64,000 bases of DNA from a virus (taxonomy: Duplodnaviria > Caudoviricetes): positions 64,950 through 128,949 of the IMG/VR virus record IMGVR_UViG_3300030376_006003; one strand, given 5' to 3'. This document shows, in pieces, positions 170-64,000 of this stretch (positions are counted from its first letter, which is position 1; each line of letters starts with the position of its first letter). The translations under genes and the position numbers were made by a program. The notes below the pieces were generated by a model, which saw nothing but the letters and a program-made list of their open reading frames with translations, was not told where the DNA came from and did no database searches.

Positions 170-3100
170 TTAAAACATTTTTATATTACCACAATCATCA
201 CAGTCTAAACCATCTACTGTTATTGTTATTTTTTGTGAATTACAATTTCCTGTTGTTGTAAAACAGTGACAAAGATTAATTTTATGTTCAGTATCTTCTG
301 CTGCATTAGGTATAGATAATCTTAATACTCCTAATGAATCTGTTTTACCAGCATATAAACCATCAAGTACTATTTCATAATCTGGTATTCTATCACCATC
401 TTTATTTTCAACTATTATAACTATACACTCTGACCCATCACATGTTCTTTTTGTGGTTCCACAATCAGTTGCGTCTACCCAATCAGGTTTTGGTGTAGCT
501 CCGTTTATATGTTTTATTTTAGTAAAAGTCTCTGCACCATAATCTGGTAATAATCTATCTACCCAATCAGATGAATATTTCTTAGAAGCACGTCCATCCA
601 TATTATATAAACATCCTGGATCTAAACCATATCTTTTATTCTTATAAAGATTATAGACATCAGTTGCAAAATTACATTCTGTATCAATTTTAAGTAACTC
701 ACATCTTGACATTGAATCTCTTGGATCTTCCTCAAGAGGGAACATGCAAGTACCATCATCTACTCCTGCTAACGGATTATAATTCCAAGATAAAGGATCA
801 GTACATCCTAATATACAGTTTAGTTGTGATGTAATTTGTGCTTCACTTATTGTTATTGTTATTAATGATTGTATACAGGAACCAGCAGCTGTAAATGTAT
901 AACAGTCGTTTATTACTGCTGTACCTGCAGCCGATAATGTATGACTCACTGTACCGTTGGCATTTGTATTCCCAATAGCTATTCCATCAACTTTTATAGG
1001 ATAATTCATTACAGGACTTCCATTAACATCTACAGCCTTTATTATAAGACATTGAGAACCATCACATATTGTTGTTGTTGATCCTGATCCTAAGAACACA
1101 GTAAGATCATTAACAAATGTCTGTGCTTGGAAAGGTACTTCAGCTATATTTACTCCCCAACCGTGTTGATCTAGACCTCCGTATGTAGGAACAGTACCTG
1201 TCCAATAAGGATTTGTAGTTTCTAAATCAGTAATAGTAACAAGAGAATTTGTAGGAATAGTTCCAACTTGCCAAGTACCATCAAGAGTACCAGTACCACC
1301 AGCTTCATCTTGATTACCGCTATGAATTGTTGCTAGAGCGTGCATAGGAAAAGCAGTATGGCTACTACCAGCACTTCCAGGTTTAGAAGGATAAAGAAAT
1401 GCTTTAAAACTTTTTCCATTTGCGTTAATAAATGCAGTTCTTTGTGCAATATATTCAGAATGATCAGCTTGCCAATGTACAGTAGGTTGTCCTGATTGTA
1501 TATTAGACCAATCTACACCACCCCCACTGTATGTTGAATCATTATCAAAAGAGTTACCCATACCATGGTATGAAAATGTTGCCTCATCTGCAAAACATAT
1601 AACTAAAACATCATCAGTTGTAGAAGCAGCTGGAGCGGAACCAATAAATAGTTGATTCCCATTATTATTTCCAGCATTATCACCATCAGGCATAGGAGCT
1701 CCTGTTCTTCCAAGACCTGTACCATTTGGATCTACTTCAGAAGTATCATAAAATGTATCTATAGTCCATGTATGACCACCTGCCGTCCATGTTGCTGTAT
1801 CATATGACCAGTTACATATTTTATGTGCTCTGGAAGCATGACTAGCAATCCCATAAGGACTAGGTCCATATAAATTTGTAGTTGGATCTCTTCTAGCGAA
1901 ACAACTACTACCAGGGTTACACCATTCTGATTGTACACTAAAAACAGTACCACTATTAGCACCACCTCCAGTCCACTTATGATCTAAAGTAACTTGAGCA
2001 TTATTATTATTAAACTTCCCTGTTATTGCAGATGTTGCCCAATCTAACCATCTTTCATTAGCAATAGCTGTATGAAATACATTTTGAGTGCTAGAACCAT
2101 GAACTGTATCTACAGTAAAGTCAGGAAGATCTAATAACCATACCATAACAGCCTCATAAGCAGCTTTAACTTCATCTACCCCTAAAGATGTTCCATCATA
2201 ATACAGGTATACTTTTGTTTCATTACCAACTAATTGTTCTGACTCACCACATACAGGAATTGCCCAGTTAGGTTCAGGTCCTTTATTTGCACGATCATAG
2301 TCCTCTTTTTGATAAGAGCATTCACCTACTACTTTTATTGTTTGACCTTCTGTTAATCCTGTTACAGGAATTGTTGCTGGAGGAGTAGCACATCCTGTTG
2401 ATGTTCCATAAGGTGCACCGTCTACTGTTGTTATTATATTACTTAAACCTGCTCCTGTACTTAAATCTATATCTATAGTTGAAGTTCCGTCAGGTTGACA
2501 GACTTCAGTCCCAAATAAAATATCACATCCTCCTGAATTTTGACTTACTACAATACAACTACCATCATCACATGTAGCATTTGGATCATAGTTACCAGCT
2601 AACGGATCTGTACAGCCGTATGTGCAATAAGTACATGAACCATCATCATAAGTAGCTGTTGGGCTATAATTTGTTGCAGCAGGGTCAGTACATCCATAGG
2701 TATAAGTACAAGAACCATCATCTACCGTAGCATTAGGATCATAATTTGTTGCACTTGGATCTGTACATCCATTTACTGGAGGAGTTAAGCAGTCTGTACA
2801 AGGAGATGAACTACCATTAGGATATGTTATATATGCACCTATAGTTATAACATCTGTTCCAGCTTCAGCTGTCGCACTGTCTCCCATATACTCATAACAC
2901 ATATCAGCATTAGTTCCTGATGGATCCATGTTTATTACATCACCTTGATTAGGGCTACCTACACTCTGATAGAAAGCTACACTACTTGGACTGTCATCTG
3001 GTACACCAGGTCCAACTATATTTAGTACTGTAGAATTTGTACATTTTTTCCACTTATGAAAAAGTGTGTTAGCATTTGCAGCTTGACAACCTGCACAAGT

Positions 3101-3703
3101 ACCATAAACTGCTGGGACAGCATCCCAAGGAACAGTGTTTGAATAAAAATACCATTGACCATAATCTAAAGCAGGGTCACCTATTGGATATTCACCCATA
3201 TATTCCCAACACTGAACATTATATGAAGTTACAGTTCCAATAACAGTTGGAGATCCTAGACCTACATATACTGCATTATTAGAAGCTGTTGTTAAAGTGC
3301 TATCTATATCTCCATCTATAACATGACGTACATTGTTACCTGGATCAAAACAACCTCTAAAAGCATGATAATTTACTGTTGCTGGTATTTGTGAAACACA
3401 TCCAGCACATGTAGTACCTGTAGGAGTTAATGATCCTGATGGTGAAGTTACACCCCATTCATATAATCCTGTATTTGATGGATCAGAACTATAGTCTATA
3501 AATTCCCAACATATACCGTTGTGTACTGTAAACTCTCCAGCACTAGGTTGCCCTAAATGACTCCAAAAATTCCAACTACCCTGTCTTTGATCAGAAATAG
3601 TATCACTTTGAGATGCTTCAGTTACTGATTTTTCAAACGGAGTTTGATCACAAGCTGTGTATTGTTTAAAGTGGTAAAAATGTTGATCGTTTAAATTTGG
3701 CAT
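170..3703 (-). CDS. Large Cys-rich modular putative virion/adhesin protein
   Basis: 4 GCTDPxAxNYxPxAxxDDGxC repeats, 3 N-terminal repeats with C(W/Y)E(F/Y)...CxxC, 2 CDGS(Q/E)C...DG...G.T...G Ig/PEGA-like repeats; lies in the structural operon. Confidence 0.65.
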   Translation of the reverse strand: MPNLNDQHFYHFKQYTACDQTPFEKSVTEASQSDTISDQRQGSWNFWSHLGQPSAGEFTVHNGICWEFIDYSSDPSNTGLYEWGVTSPSGSLTPTGTTCAGCVSQIPATVNYHAFRGCFDPGNNVRHVIDGDIDSTLTTASNNAVYVGLGSPTVIGTVTSYNVQCWEYMGEYPIGDPALDYGQWYFYSNTVPWDAVPAVYGTCAGCQAANANTLFHKWKKCTNSTVLNIVGPGVPDDSPSSVAFYQSVGSPNQGDVINMDPSGTNADMCYEYMGDSATAEAGTDVITIGAYITYPNGSSSPCTDCLTPPVNGCTDPSATNYDPNATVDDGSCTYTYGCTDPAATNYSPTATYDDGSCTYCTYGCTDPLAGNYDPNATCDDGSCIVVSQNSGGCDILFGTEVCQPDGTSTIDIDLSTGAGLSNIITTVDGAPYGTSTGCATPPATIPVTGLTEGQTIKVVGECSYQKEDYDRANKGPEPNWAIPVCGESEQLVGNETKVYLYYDGTSLGVDEVKAAYEAVMVWLLDLPDFTVDTVHGSSTQNVFHTAIANERWLDWATSAITGKFNNNNAQVTLDHKWTGGGANSGTVFSVQSEWCNPGSSCFARRDPTTNLYGPSPYGIASHASRAHKICNWSYDTATWTAGGHTWTIDTFYDTSEVDPNGTGLGRTGAPMPDGDNAGNNNGNQLFIGSAPAASTTDDVLVICFADEATFSYHGMGNSFDNDSTYSGGGVDWSNIQSGQPTVHWQADHSEYIAQRTAFINANGKSFKAFLYPSKPGSAGSSHTAFPMHALATIHSGNQDEAGGTGTLDGTWQVGTIPTNSLVTITDLETTNPYWTGTVPTYGGLDQHGWGVNIAEVPFQAQTFVNDLTVFLGSGSTTTICDGSQCLIIKAVDVNGSPVMNYPIKVDGIAIGNTNANGTVSHTLSAAGTAVINDCYTFTAAGSCIQSLITITISEAQITSQLNCILGCTDPLSWNYNPLAGVDDGTCMFPLEEDPRDSMSRCELLKIDTECNFATDVYNLYKNKRYGLDPGCLYNMDGRASKKYSSDWVDRLLPDYGAETFTKIKHINGATPKPDWVDATDCGTTKRTCDGSECIVIIVENKDGDRIPDYEIVLDGLYAGKTDSLGVLRLSIPNAAEDTEHKINLCHCFTTTGNCNSQKITITVDGLDCDDCGNIKMF

Positions 3704-6699: not shown

Positions 6700-7713
6700 T
6701 TATGCATTATTCCATAATTCTTCCATCTCCTCTATATAACGTTGTAGTAACTCATCATTTTTAGGATCTTTTAAATGCTCTAAAACTTCTATAGGTCTAA
6801 CGCCTAACTTAGCTCCAGAAAATTTATCATATATATAACCATCTGATTTAGTGGTCATTATGTTATATGTCATAGCATCTTTTATCATTGCTCTTATTTT
6901 AAGATCTTCCATTGATTCATTAGCTGCTTCTATAAACGCCTTAGCAGATTTCTTTATGTTTGTATCTAATCCTTTTCCATTTATATAAATATCCATGTTT
7001 TCATATAATACATCTACAGGTGTTGCTTTTGTATATTGAGTACTATTAGCGTCTACAATTTTACATACATAAAGTAGCTTTGTTGTATCTCCATCATACA
7101 GATTTTGTAATTGAGATAAAGCTTTATTTTTAATTTTAGATACATTAGTTCTTGTACTTGCTGTTTCTCTCACTTTATCTAAATAAAATTTAGCTTTAGT
7201 TGCTTTACAAGTCTCTAGACTGCTTGCCACCATTGAAAAACCTCCAGCTTCAATAGCATAGAGCTTTATAAGATCATAAGGATCTACGGCAGGATCTAAA
7301 TATATAGGTTCATTACCTACTTTTAAATTTATTTTTTCCCAGAAATTATGATTATCTGGTCTCAAAACCTGAACTTTATTCCAGAAATCTTTATCTTCTG
7401 GATCAATAACATTAGCTGCTAATTCTTTTTCAAGTTGAACTACTGCTGTTCTAATTTCTTTTACTTTTGCTTTTCTTGCTTTTGGATCTAGTTGCTTTAC
7501 CTCTGGAGCAAACTCATTTAATCCAGTAATATATCTAACTATTCCATTTCTTTCCATACATGCTATAGTTTCAGAATGATATACATTATCAAACAATGTC
7601 ATGTTATATTTTTCTAGTCCCATATTCTCCTTACTATTATCAAAATAAGGTTTTATAGATATAGTTCTATTTTTAGTTTGTTGATACTTTTCAATAATTG
7701 TTATATTGTCCAT
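6700..7713 (-). CDS. Conserved crAss-like capsid-module protein (gene after MCP)
   Basis: 337 aa; syntenic position immediately downstream of MCP. Confidence 0.55.
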   Translation of the reverse strand: MDNITIIEKYQQTKNRTISIKPYFDNSKENMGLEKYNMTLFDNVYHSETIACMERNGIVRYITGLNEFAPEVKQLDPKARKAKVKEIRTAVVQLEKELAANVIDPEDKDFWNKVQVLRPDNHNFWEKINLKVGNEPIYLDPAVDPYDLIKLYAIEAGGFSMVASSLETCKATKAKFYLDKVRETASTRTNVSKIKNKALSQLQNLYDGDTTKLLYVCKIVDANSTQYTKATPVDVLYENMDIYINGKGLDTNIKKSAKAFIEAANESMEDLKIRAMIKDAMTYNIMTTKSDGYIYDKFSGAKLGVRPIEVLEHLKDPKNDELLQRYIEEMEELWNNA

Positions 7714-7756
7714 TTTCAGTTTTTTTTTGGTTAATTTTTGTTTTTATTGGTTTAAG

Positions 7757-51496: not shown

Positions 51497-51689
51497 AGAT
51501 ATAAGACATATAATAGACCAGATGGTCAAAGAAAAAGAATATAAAAAGAATAATGGCCCTATAGAAGTAACTGCTGATCAGTTATGGAAGTATAGTGGAG
51601 AGGTTGAACCAACTAACCCTAACATTATAAAATATGAAAATGAAATTAAAAATATAAAAAGATTTAAAAATGGTAGAAACAACATTTAA
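51489..51689 (+). CDS. Hypothetical protein (probable start 51489)
   Basis: Overlap-coupled between the sulfotransferase and groEL. Confidence 0.55.
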   Translation: MNKDIRHIIDQMVKEKEYKKNNGPIEVTADQLWKYSGEVEPTNPNIIKYENEIKNIKRFKNGRNNI

Positions 51690-53283
51690 TATTGAAGCTA
51701 GAGAAGCTTTAAAGAAAGGTCTAGACATCTTAGCTGATGCAGTTAAAGTAACATTAGGACCTAAAGGAAGAAACGTAGTTATAAGAAATACATACGGTTA
51801 TCCTCATATGACTAAAGATGGTGTAACAGTAGCAAAAGAAATCATACTAAAAGACCCTTTACAAAACATGGGAGCTCAAATGGTGAAAGAAGTTGCTAAT
51901 AATACAGCAGAGACTGCTGGTGACGGGACAACTACTGCAACAGTACTTGCTCAAGCTATAGCAACACTTGGACTTAAGAACGTTGCTGCAGGCGCTAATC
52001 CAATAGACTTAAAGAAAGGTATAGATATTGCTGTATCAGCTTTAATTGATGAGCTAAAGAAAACATCCATCCCGGTTAATGAATCACTTGAACAAATAAA
52101 AAACGTTGCTGCTATCTCAGCTAACAATGATGATGAGATGGGTCAACTTATAGCAGATGCAATTGAGAAAGTAACTACTAAAGGTATAATTACTGTTGAA
52201 GAAGCTAGAGGTATAGATACTAAAATTGAAATTACTGAAGGCATGCAGCTTGATAGAGGATATATGTCTCCATATTTTACAACTAATGATAAAATGGAAG
52301 CTATATTAGAAGATTGTTTAATATGTATATCTAATGAAAGAGTGTTGAATGTACAACAAATCATACCTCTTCTTGAAAAGGTTGCTCAAGCAAATAAACC
52401 TTTATTAATTATAGTTGATAGCATGGATGACGCTGCATTAAATGGTTTATGTTTAAATAAACTTAAAGGAGTTCTTAAAGTATGTGCTATTAAGGGTCCA
52501 GGTTTTGGTGAAAGACGTAAAGAACTATTAGAAGACATTGCTATACTTACAGGCGGTACTGTTATTGATGCTGCTAATGATCTTACTATAGCTACTGCAG
52601 AACTAGATCATTTAGGTAAAGTAAAGAAAGCAACTATAACTAAAGAGGCTACTATGTTACTTCACGGTAATGGTGATAAAGAAGCTATTGCTTCTAGATT
52701 AAAAGTAATAAAGGACCTAGCTGATAATGCTGAGACTGATTTTCTTAAGCAAGGATTTCAAGAACGTTTTGGTAAATTAGGTGGGGGTATTGCTGTATTA
52801 TATGTAGGCGCTCCTACTGAAGTTGAAATGAAACAGAAAAGAGATAGAGTAGATGACGCTCTTGCTGCAACTAAAGCTGCTATTGAAGAAGGTATATCTA
52901 TTGGTGGCGGGTGTGCTATAATTAAATCTAGATATGTACTTAACCGTCTGTTAGAAGATACTTCAGGTGATACTAGAACAGGTGTTCAAATCATTTATGA
53001 TGCAATTGAAGCTCCTATTAAACAGATTGTTTATAACGGTGGTGGTGAAGGGTCCGTAATAGTTAAGGAATTAACTAATGCTGATAATAACATTGGTTAT
53101 AATGCTAAGACTGAGCAATGGGAAGACTTAGTAAAAGCCGGTATTATTGATCCAACTAAAGTTGTAGTTACAGCACTAACTAATGCTGCTTCAGTTGCAA
53201 GTATGCTTCTTACAACAGAATGTGTAATATCAGATGATGTTGATGCTCTTAAAGAGTTAATGCAAAAACCACCTATAGTATGA
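51670..53283 (+). CDS. groEL: Group I chaperonin
   Basis: AVKVTLGPKGRNV, TKDGVTVAKEI, AGDGTTTAT, DRGYMSPYF, GIIDPTKV; no GGM tail. Confidence 0.97.
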   Translation: MVETTFNIEAREALKKGLDILADAVKVTLGPKGRNVVIRNTYGYPHMTKDGVTVAKEIILKDPLQNMGAQMVKEVANNTAETAGDGTTTATVLAQAIATLGLKNVAAGANPIDLKKGIDIAVSALIDELKKTSIPVNESLEQIKNVAAISANNDDEMGQLIADAIEKVTTKGIITVEEARGIDTKIEITEGMQLDRGYMSPYFTTNDKMEAILEDCLICISNERVLNVQQIIPLLEKVAQANKPLLIIVDSMDDAALNGLCLNKLKGVLKVCAIKGPGFGERRKELLEDIAILTGGTVIDAANDLTIATAELDHLGKVKKATITKEATMLLHGNGDKEAIASRLKVIKDLADNAETDFLKQGFQERFGKLGGGIAVLYVGAPTEVEMKQKRDRVDDALAATKAAIEEGISIGGGCAIIKSRYVLNRLLEDTSGDTRTGVQIIYDAIEAPIKQIVYNGGGEGSVIVKELTNADNNIGYNAKTEQWEDLVKAGIIDPTKVVVTALTNAASVASMLLTTECVISDDVDALKELMQKPPIV

Positions 53284-54132: not shown

Positions 54133-54525
54133 TTATTTTTTAGTTTTCTCTAATGAACGGCCACCAAAATATGCACCTATTACTGTTATTAGTACTAATT
54201 GTAGTAAACTTTTCCATTCATCGTCTACAACAAACTTAATTGTACCAGCATCTATGAATATCATAAGTACTGTACATACTACTAAGAATGCTAATACTAA
54301 TGGTCTAATGTTTTTAGATAACCATGAGTCAGAATTCATATCTGCACTCCATCTTGCAGTTATTTCTTTCTCCATTTGTGTTTCATAACTAGCTACCAGC
54401 TCTTTAATTTTTTGTTCAGCGGCAAGTCTTTCCTCATCAGATGTATGTAAATTATCTACAACTCCCCCTATACCTTTTACAAGTTCTGTTGCTCCACCTG
54501 AAAATATTTTTCCTATTATGCTCAT
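54133..54525 (-). CDS. Holin (GTA-type '3TM' holin-like)
   Basis: TSDEER...RW.ADM.SDSWLSKNIRPL plus two TM segments plus AYFGGRSLEK. Confidence 0.8.
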   Translation of the reverse strand: MSIIGKIFSGGATELVKGIGGVVDNLHTSDEERLAAEQKIKELVASYETQMEKEITARWSADMNSDSWLSKNIRPLVLAFLVVCTVLMIFIDAGTIKFVVDDEWKSLLQLVLITVIGAYFGGRSLEKTKK

Positions 54526-59238: not shown

Positions 59239-59583
59239 TTATTTTTTCTTTTTACCACCCCAGTACTCAACGGCAAAGCCTTCTTGTACTAAGGTTTCAT
59301 TAACATTTAAGTCTTCAACATGTAAAGTCCCAAGTACTCTTCCATATTTTCCAACTTCTTTACTTTCTAAAATAAATTCACCGCCCTCTAAGAGTTCAGC
59401 TAATCTATCCTTAGATGCAAGGCCCCGTGCCTTTTCTTCTAAATCTCTTGTTCTTGACTCAGGTGTATCTATACCTGCTAGTCTTATTCTTTTATGGATA
59501 GTTATATCAAACCCTAAGTTTATATGAGCATCTACTGTATCCCCATCTACTATCCTATCTAATTTTGCTTTATATGTATACAT
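59239..59583 (-). CDS. Thermonuclease (SNase-like)
   Basis: VDGDT...IRLAGIDTPE...GKYGRVL...N..LV.EG.A. Confidence 0.9.
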   Translation of the reverse strand: MYTYKAKLDRIVDGDTVDAHINLGFDITIHKRIRLAGIDTPESRTRDLEEKARGLASKDRLAELLEGGEFILESKEVGKYGRVLGTLHVEDLNVNETLVQEGFAVEYWGGKKKK

Positions 59584-60659
59584 TAAAATATCACGTAATT
59601 AATTCCTACTTTAAAATCATACCACTCTTTATTCCAATACTTATTATAAATACCCTCTAAGAACATACCAAAATGCCTGTCAAATTTATAACCAACTATC
59701 AGGCCTCCTGAATAATCATACCATTGTTCACCTTCATTAAAATTGAAGTAAGAGTATTCACCTCCATCATTATAATGGTATGGCATAACATTTCCCCAAC
59801 TGTGTAACCAAAAGCTTTTACTATAGTGATAATAATCATATCCTAAAACTAATGAATGATTCCATTGTGCGGGTAACTCATTTCTCTTCTTTTCCGTATA
59901 GTCTGCTAAGACCCCCGGTATTACTACTGCTTCCCATACTTCAGTGCTTGTGGCAACAACAGCACCTGACGGGTCATAGTATTCTCCTTTATATACATCT
60001 ACATTATACCCTTCTTCTATGGCAAGGTAGGTATAATGCAAATTCCCATTACTCAATTTCCATTCATCTAAAGGATCATATCCATACGGCTCTGCAATCC
60101 TTTGTACTGCTCCTATATTAATTGACAGCTTTCTACTTATCTCGTGTCTATATCTCTGTGATAATTCAAAATACTTTATGTCAGCAAATCCATCTTCTAA
60201 GTATTCACCTTTGAATGAAAAATGTTTAGCACATAAAATTTTACCACAATTATCATGAGCAGCGTATCGTATGAAATGATGTTGATCTAAATACTCCATA
60301 CCCTCTTGACGCTTTATATCAAATTGGAATTTGTATTCTAAACCTCTGATCTTACCTACTGTTGCTGCATCACTATAATTAGACTCTGTTCCATCGTAAA
60401 AGGTGTTAGCTTTATTCTCGTATCCAAATCTAGCTATCTTCCTTACACCAAATGAAACTGAATAGTCATAAGGAGTCTCTATCGTTGTAGTTTCTAAACC
60501 GTTATTAACGGAATATATATCCACATCTGATATAGACGTACCTCCATTTACTGCCCCATAGAACGTAGAAAATTTAAATACTTTTTTTAAATCTATGTCC
60601 TGTGAAAAAGTAAATAATGGTAGAAATAATAATAAATATATTATTAATTTCTTGTTCAC
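59583..60659 (-). CDS. Signal-peptide-bearing putative outer-membrane beta-barrel protein
   Basis: MNKKLIIYLLLFLPLFTFSQ (cleavage before Gln, Bacteroidota style); aromatic/Gly alternating strands; C-terminal KVGINYVIF beta-signal-like end. Confidence 0.7.
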   Translation of the reverse strand: MNKKLIIYLLLFLPLFTFSQDIDLKKVFKFSTFYGAVNGGTSISDVDIYSVNNGLETTTIETPYDYSVSFGVRKIARFGYENKANTFYDGTESNYSDAATVGKIRGLEYKFQFDIKRQEGMEYLDQHHFIRYAAHDNCGKILCAKHFSFKGEYLEDGFADIKYFELSQRYRHEISRKLSINIGAVQRIAEPYGYDPLDEWKLSNGNLHYTYLAIEEGYNVDVYKGEYYDPSGAVVATSTEVWEAVVIPGVLADYTEKKRNELPAQWNHSLVLGYDYYHYSKSFWLHSWGNVMPYHYNDGGEYSYFNFNEGEQWYDYSGGLIVGYKFDRHFGMFLEGIYNKYWNKEWYDFKVGINYVIF

Positions 60660-61381
60660 TACTCTGTTGCTTTAGTCCAATATGCATATTCACACATAAC
60701 ACCTTCTGCTGTAGACGCACCTTGAGCAACTGCTTGTAAACCTTCACCTGCTTTTACAGGAAGCCAAGTAAACTCTCCAGGACGTAACATTACTGTGCTA
60801 GAACCGGATGCTGCTGTAACATTAGTAACAGTTGCATTTGCGGCAGCACTACCAGATGGAGTACATGTAGCAGCTATAGTATATGAATCACCAGGATTAG
60901 CTCCTACAACTGTGTACGTATGACTGGATCCTCCTGTTACTAAATCAACTGATAAAATAGATGGGTGATTTAATATTGCAGTTTTAACTAAGTCTGCTGT
61001 AGTTCCTTCATTTGTAGTAAAGACTATAGATTCTTGTGCTACACCATCAATGGTTAAATTAATTGTATCACCAGTTATAAACAGTAAGTTAAATGTTACT
61101 GTATCTTTTTGTGCTACCGGTGCTGCAGTAATCGTTGATAATGTTATGGTATTAGCGGAGGTTGTTACACCATCTGCTTTTGTACCTGTGTGTGATACAA
61201 AACAGTACTTAGTTCCAGCTGTTGCTGGTACTAGTGATACTGGAGTTATCACGCTTGCCACTGATCTAGATATACCTAGACTAGGGGAGCCTACAGTTAA
61301 AGTGTCTGATAAGGATAAGCTTATAGGACTACTAGAGACTGTTGAGCTACTAATTGATAAAGCTGTTGTAATTGTTGCCAT
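60659..61381 (-). CDS. Thr/Ala/Ser-rich putative structural protein (paralog of 61421-61819 with an insert)
   Basis: Shared MAT.T..L..SS...S...SLS.S start and L..(G/D)(E/D)F...P...EY end. Confidence 0.65.
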   Translation of the reverse strand: MATITTALSISSSTVSSSPISLSLSDTLTVGSPSLGISRSVASVITPVSLVPATAGTKYCFVSHTGTKADGVTTSANTITLSTITAAPVAQKDTVTFNLLFITGDTINLTIDGVAQESIVFTTNEGTTADLVKTAILNHPSILSVDLVTGGSSHTYTVVGANPGDSYTIAATCTPSGSAAANATVTNVTAASGSSTVMLRPGEFTWLPVKAGEGLQAVAQGASTAEGVMCEYAYWTKATE

Positions 61382-61420
61382 AGTTTCTAATTTGTTATTT
61401 ATTGTTGTTATTAATTATTA

Positions 61421-61819
61421 TTATGCTGTTCCAAATATCATATATTCTGCTACATAGTTTGCTGCATGACCATATACTTTTAATGTACTAGCTCCTGTGA
61501 TTGGCATAAATGCAAAATCATCTCCTGATAATTTTAATATTACGGTATCACCAGATGATGTATCATCATATAAATAGATGTACTCACCTTCTGTAGGTTG
61601 CATGTTTTTTATATATAAATATGCAGGTGTTGTAGCATATTGGTTTGCAGTAAATATAGTCTCACAACTTGCTCCTGCTGCGTTTTGACTTACTTTTACT
61701 TTTGCCATACCTGATGTTTGTTCTGCTGTTATGTCTTCTGATATACTAAGTGATACAGCTTGAGAAGATAATGCTCCTGCTGCACTTGATAAAGTAAGAC
61801 CTGCTGTTACTGTTGCCAT
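61421..61819 (-). CDS. Small putative structural/decoration protein
   Basis: Beta-rich; YLYIKN...LSGDDFAFMP. Confidence 0.65.
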   Translation of the reverse strand: MATVTAGLTLSSAAGALSSQAVSLSISEDITAEQTSGMAKVKVSQNAAGASCETIFTANQYATTPAYLYIKNMQPTEGEYIYLYDDTSSGDTVILKLSGDDFAFMPITGASTLKVYGHAANYVAEYMIFGTA

Positions 61820-61823
61820 AGTT

Positions 61824-64000
61824 TTATTTTTTAATTATTTGTTTTATTATTACTTTATTTATTATAATAGTATACATTCCAGAGTTTAATTCTCCTATAC
61901 TTAATATACTAATATTTTCTCTATTAATCAACCTTTCTCCCAGCATATTGTAGATTTCTACATCAACTTCTTTACTAAAGTTTAAAATACCATCAGTTGG
62001 ATTTGGATATATATTTATTTCTTCTGTTATCATTCTTGCTGGTGGTGATGGTCCCGACCAACTATCTTGACAATAGTCATATGTTGCTTGGCATATTGTG
62101 TCCCATTCATTCTCACAACAATAATCATCTACTGAAATTACCCAAGCATAACACTGATCATTCAAAAAGAAAGGATTACCAGATCCATTTATACACCATT
62201 CTGCTGCATATAAACAACCTAAAGAATCATGCCCATGATTTACATTTGCTAGAGGATTGTAGTTCCACGCATTTTGGTCCATACACCCTTGAACCACAGG
62301 TATACACGAACCGTTGTCAGTATTAGCCAACGTATCAAAATTAAGGGCAGTACTGTCAGTACAACCATAAATGTAAGGAATACAGCTGAAATCCTCGGTG
62401 TTGGCTTGAGGATTGAAATTAATAGCAGAAGGGTCAGTACACCCAAAAATAAAAGGAACGCAAGAGTTATTATCAACATTGGCTAAAGGATTATAATTAA
62501 ACATTGTACTATCTGTACATCCATATATAGGTAATATACAACTGAAGTCGTCAGTATTACAGGAATCACAGTAGTTAAGAGCTGTAGGGTTTGTACAACC
62601 AAGTATAACTGGTATACAACTCCCATTATCTACATTTGCATTTGGATCAAAATTAAAGGCTGTACTGTCCATGCACCCGTAGATAGGTAGAATACAGGAA
62701 AAATCATCCGTATTTGCAAGAGGATCATAATTCAACGCACTAGGATCAGTACAGCCGTAAATAAATGGAACACATGTTCCGTTATCAGTATTAGCAGTTG
62801 GATCATAATTAAATTGTGTTGAGTCAGTACATCCATACATAAACGGAATACATGAACCATTGTCTGTATTAGCTAATGGGTCATAATTATACATAGTTAT
62901 ATCAGTACATCCATATACAACACCTATACATGTAGAGTCATCTGTGTTTGCTAGCGGATCATAGTTTAGTGCAACCGGGTTTGTACAACCATAAACAAAT
63001 GGTACACATGAACCGTTATTTGTATTTGCTGTAGAATCATAGTTGAATGCCAAAGCATCAGTACAACCAAAGACTACTGGTATACATGATCCGTCTGAAG
63101 TGTTGGCTGCAGCATTATAGTTAAACATGGTATCATCCATACAACCATAGATCACAGGTATGCATGATGATGAATCATTTGTATTAGCAGACGGATTAAA
63201 GTTAAATGCTGTTGTATCCATACACCCAATGATAATAGATACACAACTTGAATCATCAACGTTAGCTAAAGGATTATAGTTAAAGGCTAATGAGTTTGTA
63301 CAACCAAGCACCACTTGTATACACGGCCCTGGCATATTTGCAGAGTCTGAATAGTTTAGTGCTGTAGAATCCATACAACCTACTATACCTGGTGTACATA
63401 TATTACCACAGTAAGGTATGTTGCTGTATCTATAAGGGAATTGCAACATAGGATCTGTCCAAGGATTAGTTCCTCCTGATAAAGTAGTATCACCTTCTGG
63501 TCCTATTAAGAAGAATCCGCATTGACTTGCTGTTGTTGATGAGTTACCTGGAGCAAAGAACATTAACTCAACAGGGCTAAATGAATTTAAACTAATAGTA
63601 AATTCTTCAAAGTAACCGTCATTAGGGCCCATCATAAACGGTCCTAATATTGTACTGTCTTGAAGTATACCTACCCATGCTCCATACCATCCATCTTCAG
63701 CCTCATCAGTAATTACTAATGTATATTGGCATTGAGGAACTACTTGCATCGTATTTGCTATAGGATCATAGTCAGGTGATGTTGAATCAGTACAACCTAA
63801 TATAACAGGTGTTGCACAAGATGAATCATCTACTGTAGCTTGAGGATTATATTCTGTAAATCCTGGTGTTGTACATCCATATATAACATTAGGCACACAT
63901 GGAGCTACTGTATATACAATAGAAGTATCATCTCCAAAATTAGCATTTCCTGGTAATATAGCCATTATAGTATCACCACATAACGTTTGCACTACTGCCC
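61824..64000 (-). CDS. Cys-repeat protein with T9SS type-A C-terminal sorting domain; 5' end outside the window
   Basis: About 17 copies of a ~26-aa GC(T/M)D..A.N(Y/F).P.AN.D..SC repeat; C-terminal IYPNP...VEIYNMLG...LNSGMY.I....KQIIKK; frame open to 64000. Confidence 0.88.
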   Translation of the reverse strand, partial: AVVQTLCGDTIMAILPGNANFGDDTSIVYTVAPCVPNVIYGCTTPGFTEYNPQATVDDSSCATPVILGCTDSTSPDYDPIANTMQVVPQCQYTLVITDEAEDGWYGAWVGILQDSTILGPFMMGPNDGYFEEFTISLNSFSPVELMFFAPGNSSTTASQCGFFLIGPEGDTTLSGGTNPWTDPMLQFPYRYSNIPYCGNICTPGIVGCMDSTALNYSDSANMPGPCIQVVLGCTNSLAFNYNPLANVDDSSCVSIIIGCMDTTAFNFNPSANTNDSSSCIPVIYGCMDDTMFNYNAAANTSDGSCIPVVFGCTDALAFNYDSTANTNNGSCVPFVYGCTNPVALNYDPLANTDDSTCIGVVYGCTDITMYNYDPLANTDNGSCIPFMYGCTDSTQFNYDPTANTDNGTCVPFIYGCTDPSALNYDPLANTDDFSCILPIYGCMDSTAFNFDPNANVDNGSCIPVILGCTNPTALNYCDSCNTDDFSCILPIYGCTDSTMFNYNPLANVDNNSCVPFIFGCTDPSAINFNPQANTEDFSCIPYIYGCTDSTALNFDTLANTDNGSCIPVVQGCMDQNAWNYNPLANVNHGHDSLGCLYAAEWCINGSGNPFFLNDQCYAWVISVDDYCCENEWDTICQATYDYCQDSWSGPSPPARMITEEINIYPNPTDGILNFSKEVDVEIYNMLGERLINRENISILSIGELNSGMYTIIINKVIIKQIIKK

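Follow-up and report, generated by a model that had tools for sequence, protein, structure and literature searches.

The stretch of DNA analysed here, called the window below, comprises 64,000 nucleotides of a tailed-phage genome and corresponds to bases 64950-128949 of a 128,949-bp IMG/VR virus record (IMGVR_UViG_3300030376_006003; Duplodnaviria, Caudoviricetes). The segment at 59583-64000 of the window is the end of a late minus-strand block of structural and lysis genes. [quoted passage not shown] An earlier note, made by inspection of the window, had placed the CTD, the cysteine (Cys) repeats of the cargo and the 358-aa gene in this segment, and all three lie where it put them, on the minus strand. 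Just upstream of the cargo gene, across the record junction, are the genes of a bitopic coiled-coil protein and of a thioredoxin-fold protein predicted to be exported; together with the barrel they are referred to as the trio. In the direction of transcription the order is M15 peptidase, 94-aa coiled-coil gene, thioredoxin-fold gene, a gene with two transmembrane (TM) segments, cargo, two unassigned genes, barrel and a staphylococcal nuclease (SNase)-like gene. The principal features, in window coordinates unless the record is named, are as follows.

59583-60659, minus strand: 358-aa predicted outer membrane beta-barrel, third gene downstream of the cargo (AlphaFold2 model and structure matches)
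61824-64000, minus strand: C-terminal part of the cargo gene, 724 codons of 1083 aa (listed as open reading frame (ORF) 61824-63998, open at the window end)
61827-62012, minus strand: type-A T9SS CTD, cargo residues 1022-1083 (663-724 of the 724 in the window), matched by PF18962 and TIGR04183
62046-62213, minus strand: Cys-rich knot, GNP(Y/F)(W/F)LND.CYAWVI.VD.YCC.N.WD..CQ.TY.YC, directly before the tail, with invariant Cys/Trp columns in the C-terminal alignment
62214-63377, minus strand: 15 tandem 26-aa two-Cys repeats, C..(D/N)..A.N(Y/F)...AN.D.(G/S)SC, cargo residues 567-954 (regular expression on the translation)
63381-63755, minus strand: conserved non-repeat domain, cargo residues 441-565, found in nearly all orthologues (BLASTP against the ORFs of 80 related loci)
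Record G000:C1, 99-1175, minus strand (L002:3-1175): N-terminal part of the cargo, across the record junction, from the joined ORF of 1083 aa
Record G000:C1, 1544-1909: thioredoxin-fold protein, 121 aa, with predicted signal peptide, Cys-less
Record G000:C1, 2103-2387: predicted bitopic coiled-coil protein, 94 aa: conserved N-terminus in the cytoplasm, a single TM segment, coiled coil in the periplasm

Closure of the record and identity of the phage

Window positions 63901-63998 recur unchanged as bases 1-98 of the record; after them come one mismatch and one further match, which gives an end overlap of 100 nucleotides (window 63901-64000, record positions 1-100). The sequence therefore closes to about 128,849 bp, and the cargo gene, the last of the record, wraps across the junction and is complete. 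The assembly is circular or terminally redundant, with the cargo gene spanning the junction; its completeness is estimated by CheckV at 100%, and IMG/VR classes it as linear despite the overlap.

The position of the cargo gene at the very end of the record might suggest that the segment is host DNA misassembled onto a phage. We give this explanation practically no weight. The record ends overlap and the gene closes in frame, the GC content of the segment (34-37%) is like that of the rest of the window, and all 30 ESM Atlas clusters nearest to the barrel are viral and unnamed, making the barrel a virus-only family as far as ESM Atlas shows. The gene order also recurs in 80 independent viral contigs; these IMG/VR loci, retrieved by barrel similarity, form our synteny set, and 27 of them have full 10-kb flanks. 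A cargo-like protein accompanies the barrel in 66 of the 80 loci and in all 27 with full flanks, and this co-occurrence in related viral contigs, which the earlier note had raised as a question, rules out chimeric host DNA.

Matches to PHROG families across the genome include a major head protein, a portal, a large terminase, a DNA polymerase and GroEL. Among 50,697 phage records, the only relatives of the terminase belonged to crAss-like Bacteroides phages and to FpV4-type phages of Flavobacterium psychrophilum and Cellulophaga, at about 25-27% identity, and Pfam CrAss ring proteins are present in related loci. The lack of an integrase, noticed earlier for the window, extends to the whole genome, in which no tyrosine integrase was found. 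We read the genome as that of a complete, probably virulent, marine crAss-like phage of about 128.8 kb. From the sequence we infer a host in the Bacteroidota, and a near-identical module on a contig binned with a Flavobacteriales metagenome-assembled genome (MAG), which carries five PorP/SprF genes, offers a hint to the host. A 48-bp megablast match to Pelagibacter phage Mosig, at window 7698-7745 and outside the two large repeat proteins described below, probably reflects no more than the shared Cys repeat and is not usable as host evidence.

A cysteine-rich protein with a type-A sorting domain

Once the record ends are closed, the complete cargo begins with the N-terminal signal peptide on which the earlier reading depended. 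It is a predicted Sec signal peptide, MKKLLLILLLLPALLFG/QNSW (heuristic script), with Gln at position +1, and this residue (Gln18) is invariant among 27 cargo orthologues. The signal peptide is followed by beta-sandwich domains, 19 two-Cys repeats, the Cys-rich knot and the type-A CTD, and the part of the protein encoded in the window ends ...INIYPNPTDGILNF...VEIYNMLGE...LNSGMYTIII...KQIIKK. The full protein contains 61 Cys residues. By regular-expression count, 15 of its 19 repeats stand in unbroken tandem with a period of 26 aa; the earlier figure of about 17 tandem repeats is right as the number within the window, where 15 are in tandem and two stand apart. The predicted model of the N-terminal 391 residues is a string of beta-sandwich domains, with a predicted local distance difference test score (pLDDT) of about 90 at residues 19-121 and of 78-90 at residues 283-389. 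Its structural matches are generic fn3/Ig-like folds only (best Z 7.4), with no enzyme fold among the matches of the modelled region. A weak PDB match to an adhesin (E 0.0025) and ESM Atlas leads (<0.9) add little, and no specific ligand can be named.

The CTD lies at the extreme C-terminus and scores 32.4 bits with PF18962 (cut-off 27) and 32.3 bits with TIGR04183 (cut-off 23), which bears out the type-A assignment made in the earlier note. A six-frame search of the whole genome returned it as the sole CTD (37.3 bits, E 4e-10), and no type-B CTD was found in the genome. A family profile built from the last 130 residues of 14 cargo orthologues aligned over the full length with the solved CTDs of NucA (8GLK chain D, E 6.5e-8) and RemZ (8GLJ chain D, E 1.3e-5) of Flavobacterium johnsoniae, whose structures show both domains in their bound state within the SprA-PorV translocon (Lauber et al. 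2024, PMC10994853). The likeness covers the whole 75-residue CTD, including YPNP, the (I/V)(Y/F)..G strand, GiY and the terminal K.IIK, and the conserved C-terminal Lys (K129) is nearly invariant in the phage alignment. However, RemZ and NucA are chromosomally encoded and their secretion has been demonstrated, and the passenger part of the phage protein is unrelated to theirs. In the wider database PF18962 is retained above its cut-off in at least 85 metagenomic clusters, some of them with an N-terminal MAM domain.

The Cys repeat bears on an alternative explanation, namely that the cargo is a virion fibre and that its signal peptide and CTD are remnants from the capture of a host gene. Two large proteins without a signal peptide encoded by this phage (1177 aa, window 170-3703; 885 aa, record positions 62459-65116) contain the same repeat, as does a virion structural protein of the cyanophage S-CAM3 of Synechococcus, and the cargo gene lies among tail-fibre-like genes. 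However, 57 of 58 orthologues keep the signal peptide with Gln at +1, the metagenomic clusters just mentioned have an intact CTD that exceeds the cut-off, and 61 Cys residues suit an oxidising compartment. We therefore consider a virion fibre with vestigial signals highly improbable.

Exchange of the C-terminal tail

The CTD is not the only tail in the cargo family. Among the approximately 53 complete orthologues in related loci, 14 carry the CTD and 39 (about 74%) end in a short tail of about 40 aa, ...TDLLGRP...LLFYIYDDGTVEKKLIK, and the Cys-rich knot is common to the orthologues of both tail types. The short tail has no match in Pfam or NCBIfam, and its comparison with the CTD by hhalign is not significant (probability 2.4% or less); a MAFFT alignment sets it against the final strands of the CTD, which is suggestive only, given that hhalign lends no significant support. 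On a barrel tree, a quick maximum-likelihood version, the tail type changes nine times, and at least four changes are forced by well-supported branches, so the tails have been swapped between close relatives. Domain shuffling and tail swapping of this kind would be in keeping with a binding protein, at the surface or outside the cell, that is under pressure to diversify.

A predicted outer membrane barrel

As the earlier note had described, the third gene downstream of the cargo encodes a 358-aa protein with a signal peptide and a terminal Phe strand, GINYVIF. Its GTG start overlaps the TAG stop of the preceding 240-aa gene. The protein starts MNKKLIIYLLLFLPLFTFS/Q, with the signal peptide encoded at 60600-60659, and ends in a C-terminal beta-signal, ...FKVGINYVIF, at 59586-59615. 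In 81 barrel homologues the last residue is Phe in 67, Arg in nine, Leu in four and Asn in one. The AlphaFold2 model, obtained from a 26-sequence alignment (pLDDT 76, predicted template modelling score 0.70), is a transmembrane beta-barrel of about 14 strands, and its best structure matches are OmpG (Z 11.6, 201 aligned residues, root-mean-square deviation 5.7), the TamA barrel (Z 10.8) and NanC (Z 10.7), joined by autotransporter barrels and Tsx. The Foldseek matches at E of 0.001 or less (NanC, a COG4313 channel, PorB and OmpT) are every one an outer membrane barrel. The earlier note had named a non-barrel fold as one outcome that would speak against its reading; model, Foldseek and structure matches all give a barrel.

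The barrel has no match to a Pfam, NCBIfam or PHROG family. Its own family is large: clustering at 90% identity gives 3,718 clusters, most of them drawn from marine metagenomes and Tara, and at 50% identity 333 representatives are left. In some homologues (P0022 and P0111) the ...FSQ cleavage region is replaced by ...VGC or ...MAC and then APKKCC, and these may be lipidated variants; the distant homologues P0137 and P0194 lie on short contigs without gene context.

The model contains a confident alpha/beta insert at residues 196-260, which should face outward if strand parity is counted from the periplasmic C-terminus. The most conserved stretch of the protein, G.RKIARF.YENK...FYDG.E, sits in a low-confidence predicted periplasmic turn and is a plausible partner site. 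A conserved turn on this side is what would be expected if the barrel bound a partner, and the barrel might be a dedicated outer membrane anchor or translocator of the cargo, like PorP/SprF or a two-partner secretion barrel, with the CTD and the short tail as interchangeable docking signals. The linkage of cargo and barrel in 27 of 27 loci of this clade favours such a role, as do the switches of tail type, at least four and up to nine, between close relatives on the barrel tree, although these counts come from the quick tree. The barrel further resembles PorP/SprF in its size and in standing beside a T9SS cargo gene. However, PorP/SprF proteins are partners of type-B cargo, whereas the tail here is type A, and no homology is detectable: PF11751 gave no hmmscan match, hhalign against the five PorP/SprF proteins of the Flavobacteriales MAG gave a probability of 20%, confined to the signal peptide, and Pfam holds no match. 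The trio also occurs elsewhere without the cargo, as described below. We consider a dedicated anchor unlikely. Of the earlier proposal that the phage uses both the T9SS and the beta-barrel assembly machinery (BAM) of its host, the Sec/T9SS and Sec/BAM routing is well supported by the sequence, and the barrel as a cargo-specific partner is not, because the trio persists without the cargo.

Two conserved companions of the barrel

The two other members of the trio are the 94-aa coiled-coil protein and the 121-aa thioredoxin-fold protein. The latter matches PF00085 with 26.8 bits (cut-off 23.5) and thioredoxins in the PDB at E 7e-8; its active-site CxxC is replaced by WNAAN, and by WN..N in all 67 homologues seen, so the protein lacks the residues of an active thioredoxin. 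Within the 80 loci, the barrel is accompanied by the coiled-coil protein in 71 and by the thioredoxin-fold protein in 67, and in the 27 fully flanked loci coiled-coil gene, thioredoxin-fold gene and cargo are all present with the barrel (27/27). A signal peptide followed by Gln was called in 78 of 81 barrel, 57 of 58 cargo and 57 of 67 thioredoxin-fold homologues, compared with 17 of 917 other ORFs, and in the whole 129-kb genome the combination occurs only in the cargo, barrel and thioredoxin-fold ORFs. Substrates of signal peptidase I in Bacteroidetes characteristically have Gln at +1, and the pattern thus fits a Bacteroidota host.

Loci fetched with barrel homologues of 35-45% identity show that the trio is kept together in distant clades. 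In two of these distant groups there is no cargo-like gene within the sequence covered (at most 8 kb to either side, and less where contigs are short), and the trio is, judging from these loci, older and wider than the cargo. In one distant group, on contigs of 65-168 kb, the signal peptides are not followed by Gln. The coiled-coil member of this group is longer, 224-247 aa (L103:9092-9766, L105:9099-9776 and L107:10891-11634), and shows two N-terminal MshEN-like motifs of 24 residues, five residues apart, then a poly-Pro linker. Pfam gives no match for these longer proteins at E 0.01; the motifs suggest a cytoplasmic nucleotide-sensing input. Full-text literature searches turned up neither a description of the trio of barrel, coiled-coil and thioredoxin-fold proteins nor one of its association with the cargo.

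The predicted topology of the 94-aa protein, with an N-terminal TM segment and a periplasmic coiled coil, is that of an i-spanin, and raises the question of whether the trio acts at lysis. It could be a spanin-like device for breaking or fusing the outer membrane, with the outer membrane protein (OMP) as the o-spanin and the T9SS cargo as an unrelated passenger of the same late operon. The gene order, in which an M15 endolysin precedes the coiled-coil gene, and a holin-like gene 5 kb away are in keeping with this, as is the persistence of the trio without the cargo in distant clades. No ORF with a lipobox was found in the whole genome by a crude regular expression, so that no canonical o- or u-spanin is evident. 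Adjacency to the endolysin, i-spanin-like topology and the lack of a lipobox ORF together suit an outer membrane lysis role for the trio. Phages of Bacteroides and Croceibacter have been classed as spanin-less by Kongari et al. (2018), who wrote that 'an OMP could act as an o-spanin' (PMC6139136). The likeness to two-component spanins such as lambda Rz/Rz1 lies in a bitopic coiled-coil protein and an outer membrane partner beside an endolysin (PMC6139136). In contrast to lambda Rz/Rz1, the outer membrane member here is a 358-aa barrel and not a small lipobox lipoprotein, the periplasmic part of the 94-aa protein, at about 58 aa, is short for spanning the periplasm, and there is a third, thioredoxin-fold member. 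To our knowledge, no known spanin includes such a member. Nor are lysis genes consistently adjacent: of the 27 fully flanked loci, 10 have an M15 endolysin homologue within 10 kb and 13 the holin-like gene, while all 27 have the cargo. We regard the spanin-like device as the most serious competitor, though on balance doubtful.

A proposed model of envelope refitting

We propose that late in infection the phage refits the envelope of its host with four exported proteins: the trans-envelope trio, which evolves slowly, and a surface fibre, which evolves fast and has its domains shuffled. The 1083-aa cargo pre-protein, with its signal peptide and Gln at +1, would be exported by Sec and would fold oxidatively in the periplasm into beta-sandwich domains and 19 disulfide-loop repeats, taking up its 61 Cys residues. 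The type-A CTD would then hand it over to SprA/PorV of the host, which would leave it at the surface of the infected cell or beyond it. The barrel would likewise be exported by Sec and would be inserted by BAM as an outer membrane barrel of about 14 strands, where it may form some trans-envelope assembly with the inner membrane coiled-coil protein and the periplasmic thioredoxin fold. In the role that we prefer, the cargo is a surface or extracellular binding fibre, and the trio would serve on the outer membrane as an anchor or at lysis. Judged from the export signals, the predicted folds and the conserved synteny, we infer, with fair but far from complete confidence, that cargo and barrel are exported as described and that this model as a whole is the best explanation of the locus.

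Several observations weigh against it. The T9SS routing is not conserved in the cargo family, in which 39 orthologues have the short tail and 14 the CTD. The Cys repeat is not specific to secreted proteins, since it also occurs in non-secreted proteins that are probably virion components. The trio is present without the cargo in distant phages, and the barrel therefore need not serve the cargo. With M15 endolysin and holin-like genes in the block, a lysis role fits at least as well as surface display. Finally, the signal-peptide calls come from our own crude heuristic script and not from SignalP.

The roles that the earlier note had proposed, namely superinfection exclusion, receptor masking, aggregation or a carrier state, are speculative; the genes lie in a late structural and lysis block. 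A bolder reading makes the trio a trans-envelope machine of three parts, new to the literature and peculiar to marine phages that lack spanins. With an OMP in place of the o-spanin, it would either breach the outer membrane at lysis or dock the secreted fibre, the CTD and the short tail being alternative signals for it; we offer it as a tentative idea with rather more against it than for it.

Comparison with known systems

Phage-encoded T9SS cargo has been reported before. 'Cryophage' encodes a T9SS type-A cargo (Bellas et al. 2020, PMC7468147), and contigs of crAss-like cluster 2 contain ORFs with T9SS sorting domains (de Jonge et al. 2019, PMC6949934). As in the present case, these are phages of Bacteroidota type with a type-A sorting domain, in genes that vary between close variants, and hijacking of the T9SS has been proposed. 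In contrast to them, the cargo described here is a Cys-repeat fibre without an enzyme domain, it is fixed beside an exported trio, and its CTD is swapped for a short tail in most orthologues.

Phage proteins of the host outer membrane that are not virion parts are also known, such as lambda Lom, an 8-strand barrel, and T5 Llp, a receptor-blocking lipoprotein. The barrel resembles them in being a phage product predicted for the host outer membrane and not for the virion. It has no sequence or family relation to Lom or Llp, however, and differs in its larger size (about 14 strands, with a surface-exposed alpha/beta insert in the model), in belonging to a phage without an integrase and in having two periplasm-facing partners. 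Phage T9SS cargo and envelope-addressed phage genes are thus already known, and the trio is possibly a new system.

On the usual view, all that a phage builds is made in the cytoplasm. The locus suggests that in an abundant group of ocean phages a conserved block is set aside for proteins bound for each layer of the host envelope, one of them with a sorting tag of the Bacteroidota-only T9SS. If the cargo is exported, infected marine Flavobacteria would carry or shed a phage-made, rapidly diversifying binding fibre, which could affect adsorption, aggregation and particle attachment at sea. A trio that acts at lysis would address the question, posed by Kongari et al., of how spanin-less Bacteroidota phages open the outer membrane (PMC6139136).

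Neighbouring genes

The remaining genes of the segment and its surroundings are listed in window coordinates.

51670-53283: phage-encoded GroEL-like chaperonin (phrog_5725, E 7e-151)
54133-54525: candidate holin, 130 aa, 5 kb from the module, with a sub-threshold match to GTA_holin_3TM (23 bits against 24.8); homologues in 20 of the 80 loci
59239-59583, minus strand: SNase-like gene, 114 aa, no signal peptide (PF00565, 53.8 bits; phrog_452 endonuclease)
60659-61381, minus strand: 240-aa Ser/Thr/Ala-rich gene, no signal peptide, no family match; its TAG stop is the one overlapping the barrel GTG
61421-61819, minus strand: 132-aa gene, no signal peptide or family match; in 13 related loci a homologue comes after the cargo

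The SNase-like gene overlaps the stop of the barrel gene by 1 nucleotide and is translationally coupled to it, and its homologues adjoin the barrel in 20 of the 80 loci; we take it as a neighbour and at most a putative member of the module. The 132-aa and 240-aa genes between cargo and barrel share the N-terminus MAT(V/I)T..L..SS and are both Ser/Thr/Ala-rich. A scan for sigma-70 promoters, which is uninformative for Bacteroidota, returned 50 sites against 51.6 expected and hence no enrichment.

In 15 related phages the thioredoxin-fold gene is followed by an ORF of about 175 aa for a soluble PAP2-type phosphatase (RP..PSGH..SR.....H...D; no signal peptide or TM segment), which precedes the cargo in 13 of the 15 (for example L010:12053-12586, L014:12089-12616 and L024:12054-12581). 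Pfam PAP2 matches 10 of 148 neighbour ORFs, and the PAP2 ORF is absent from the present genome. Upstream of the module, a 1780-aa protein (L092:3565-8907, on record G000:C1) contains FG-GAP and SprB repeats, the latter being typical of Bacteroidota gliding adhesins.

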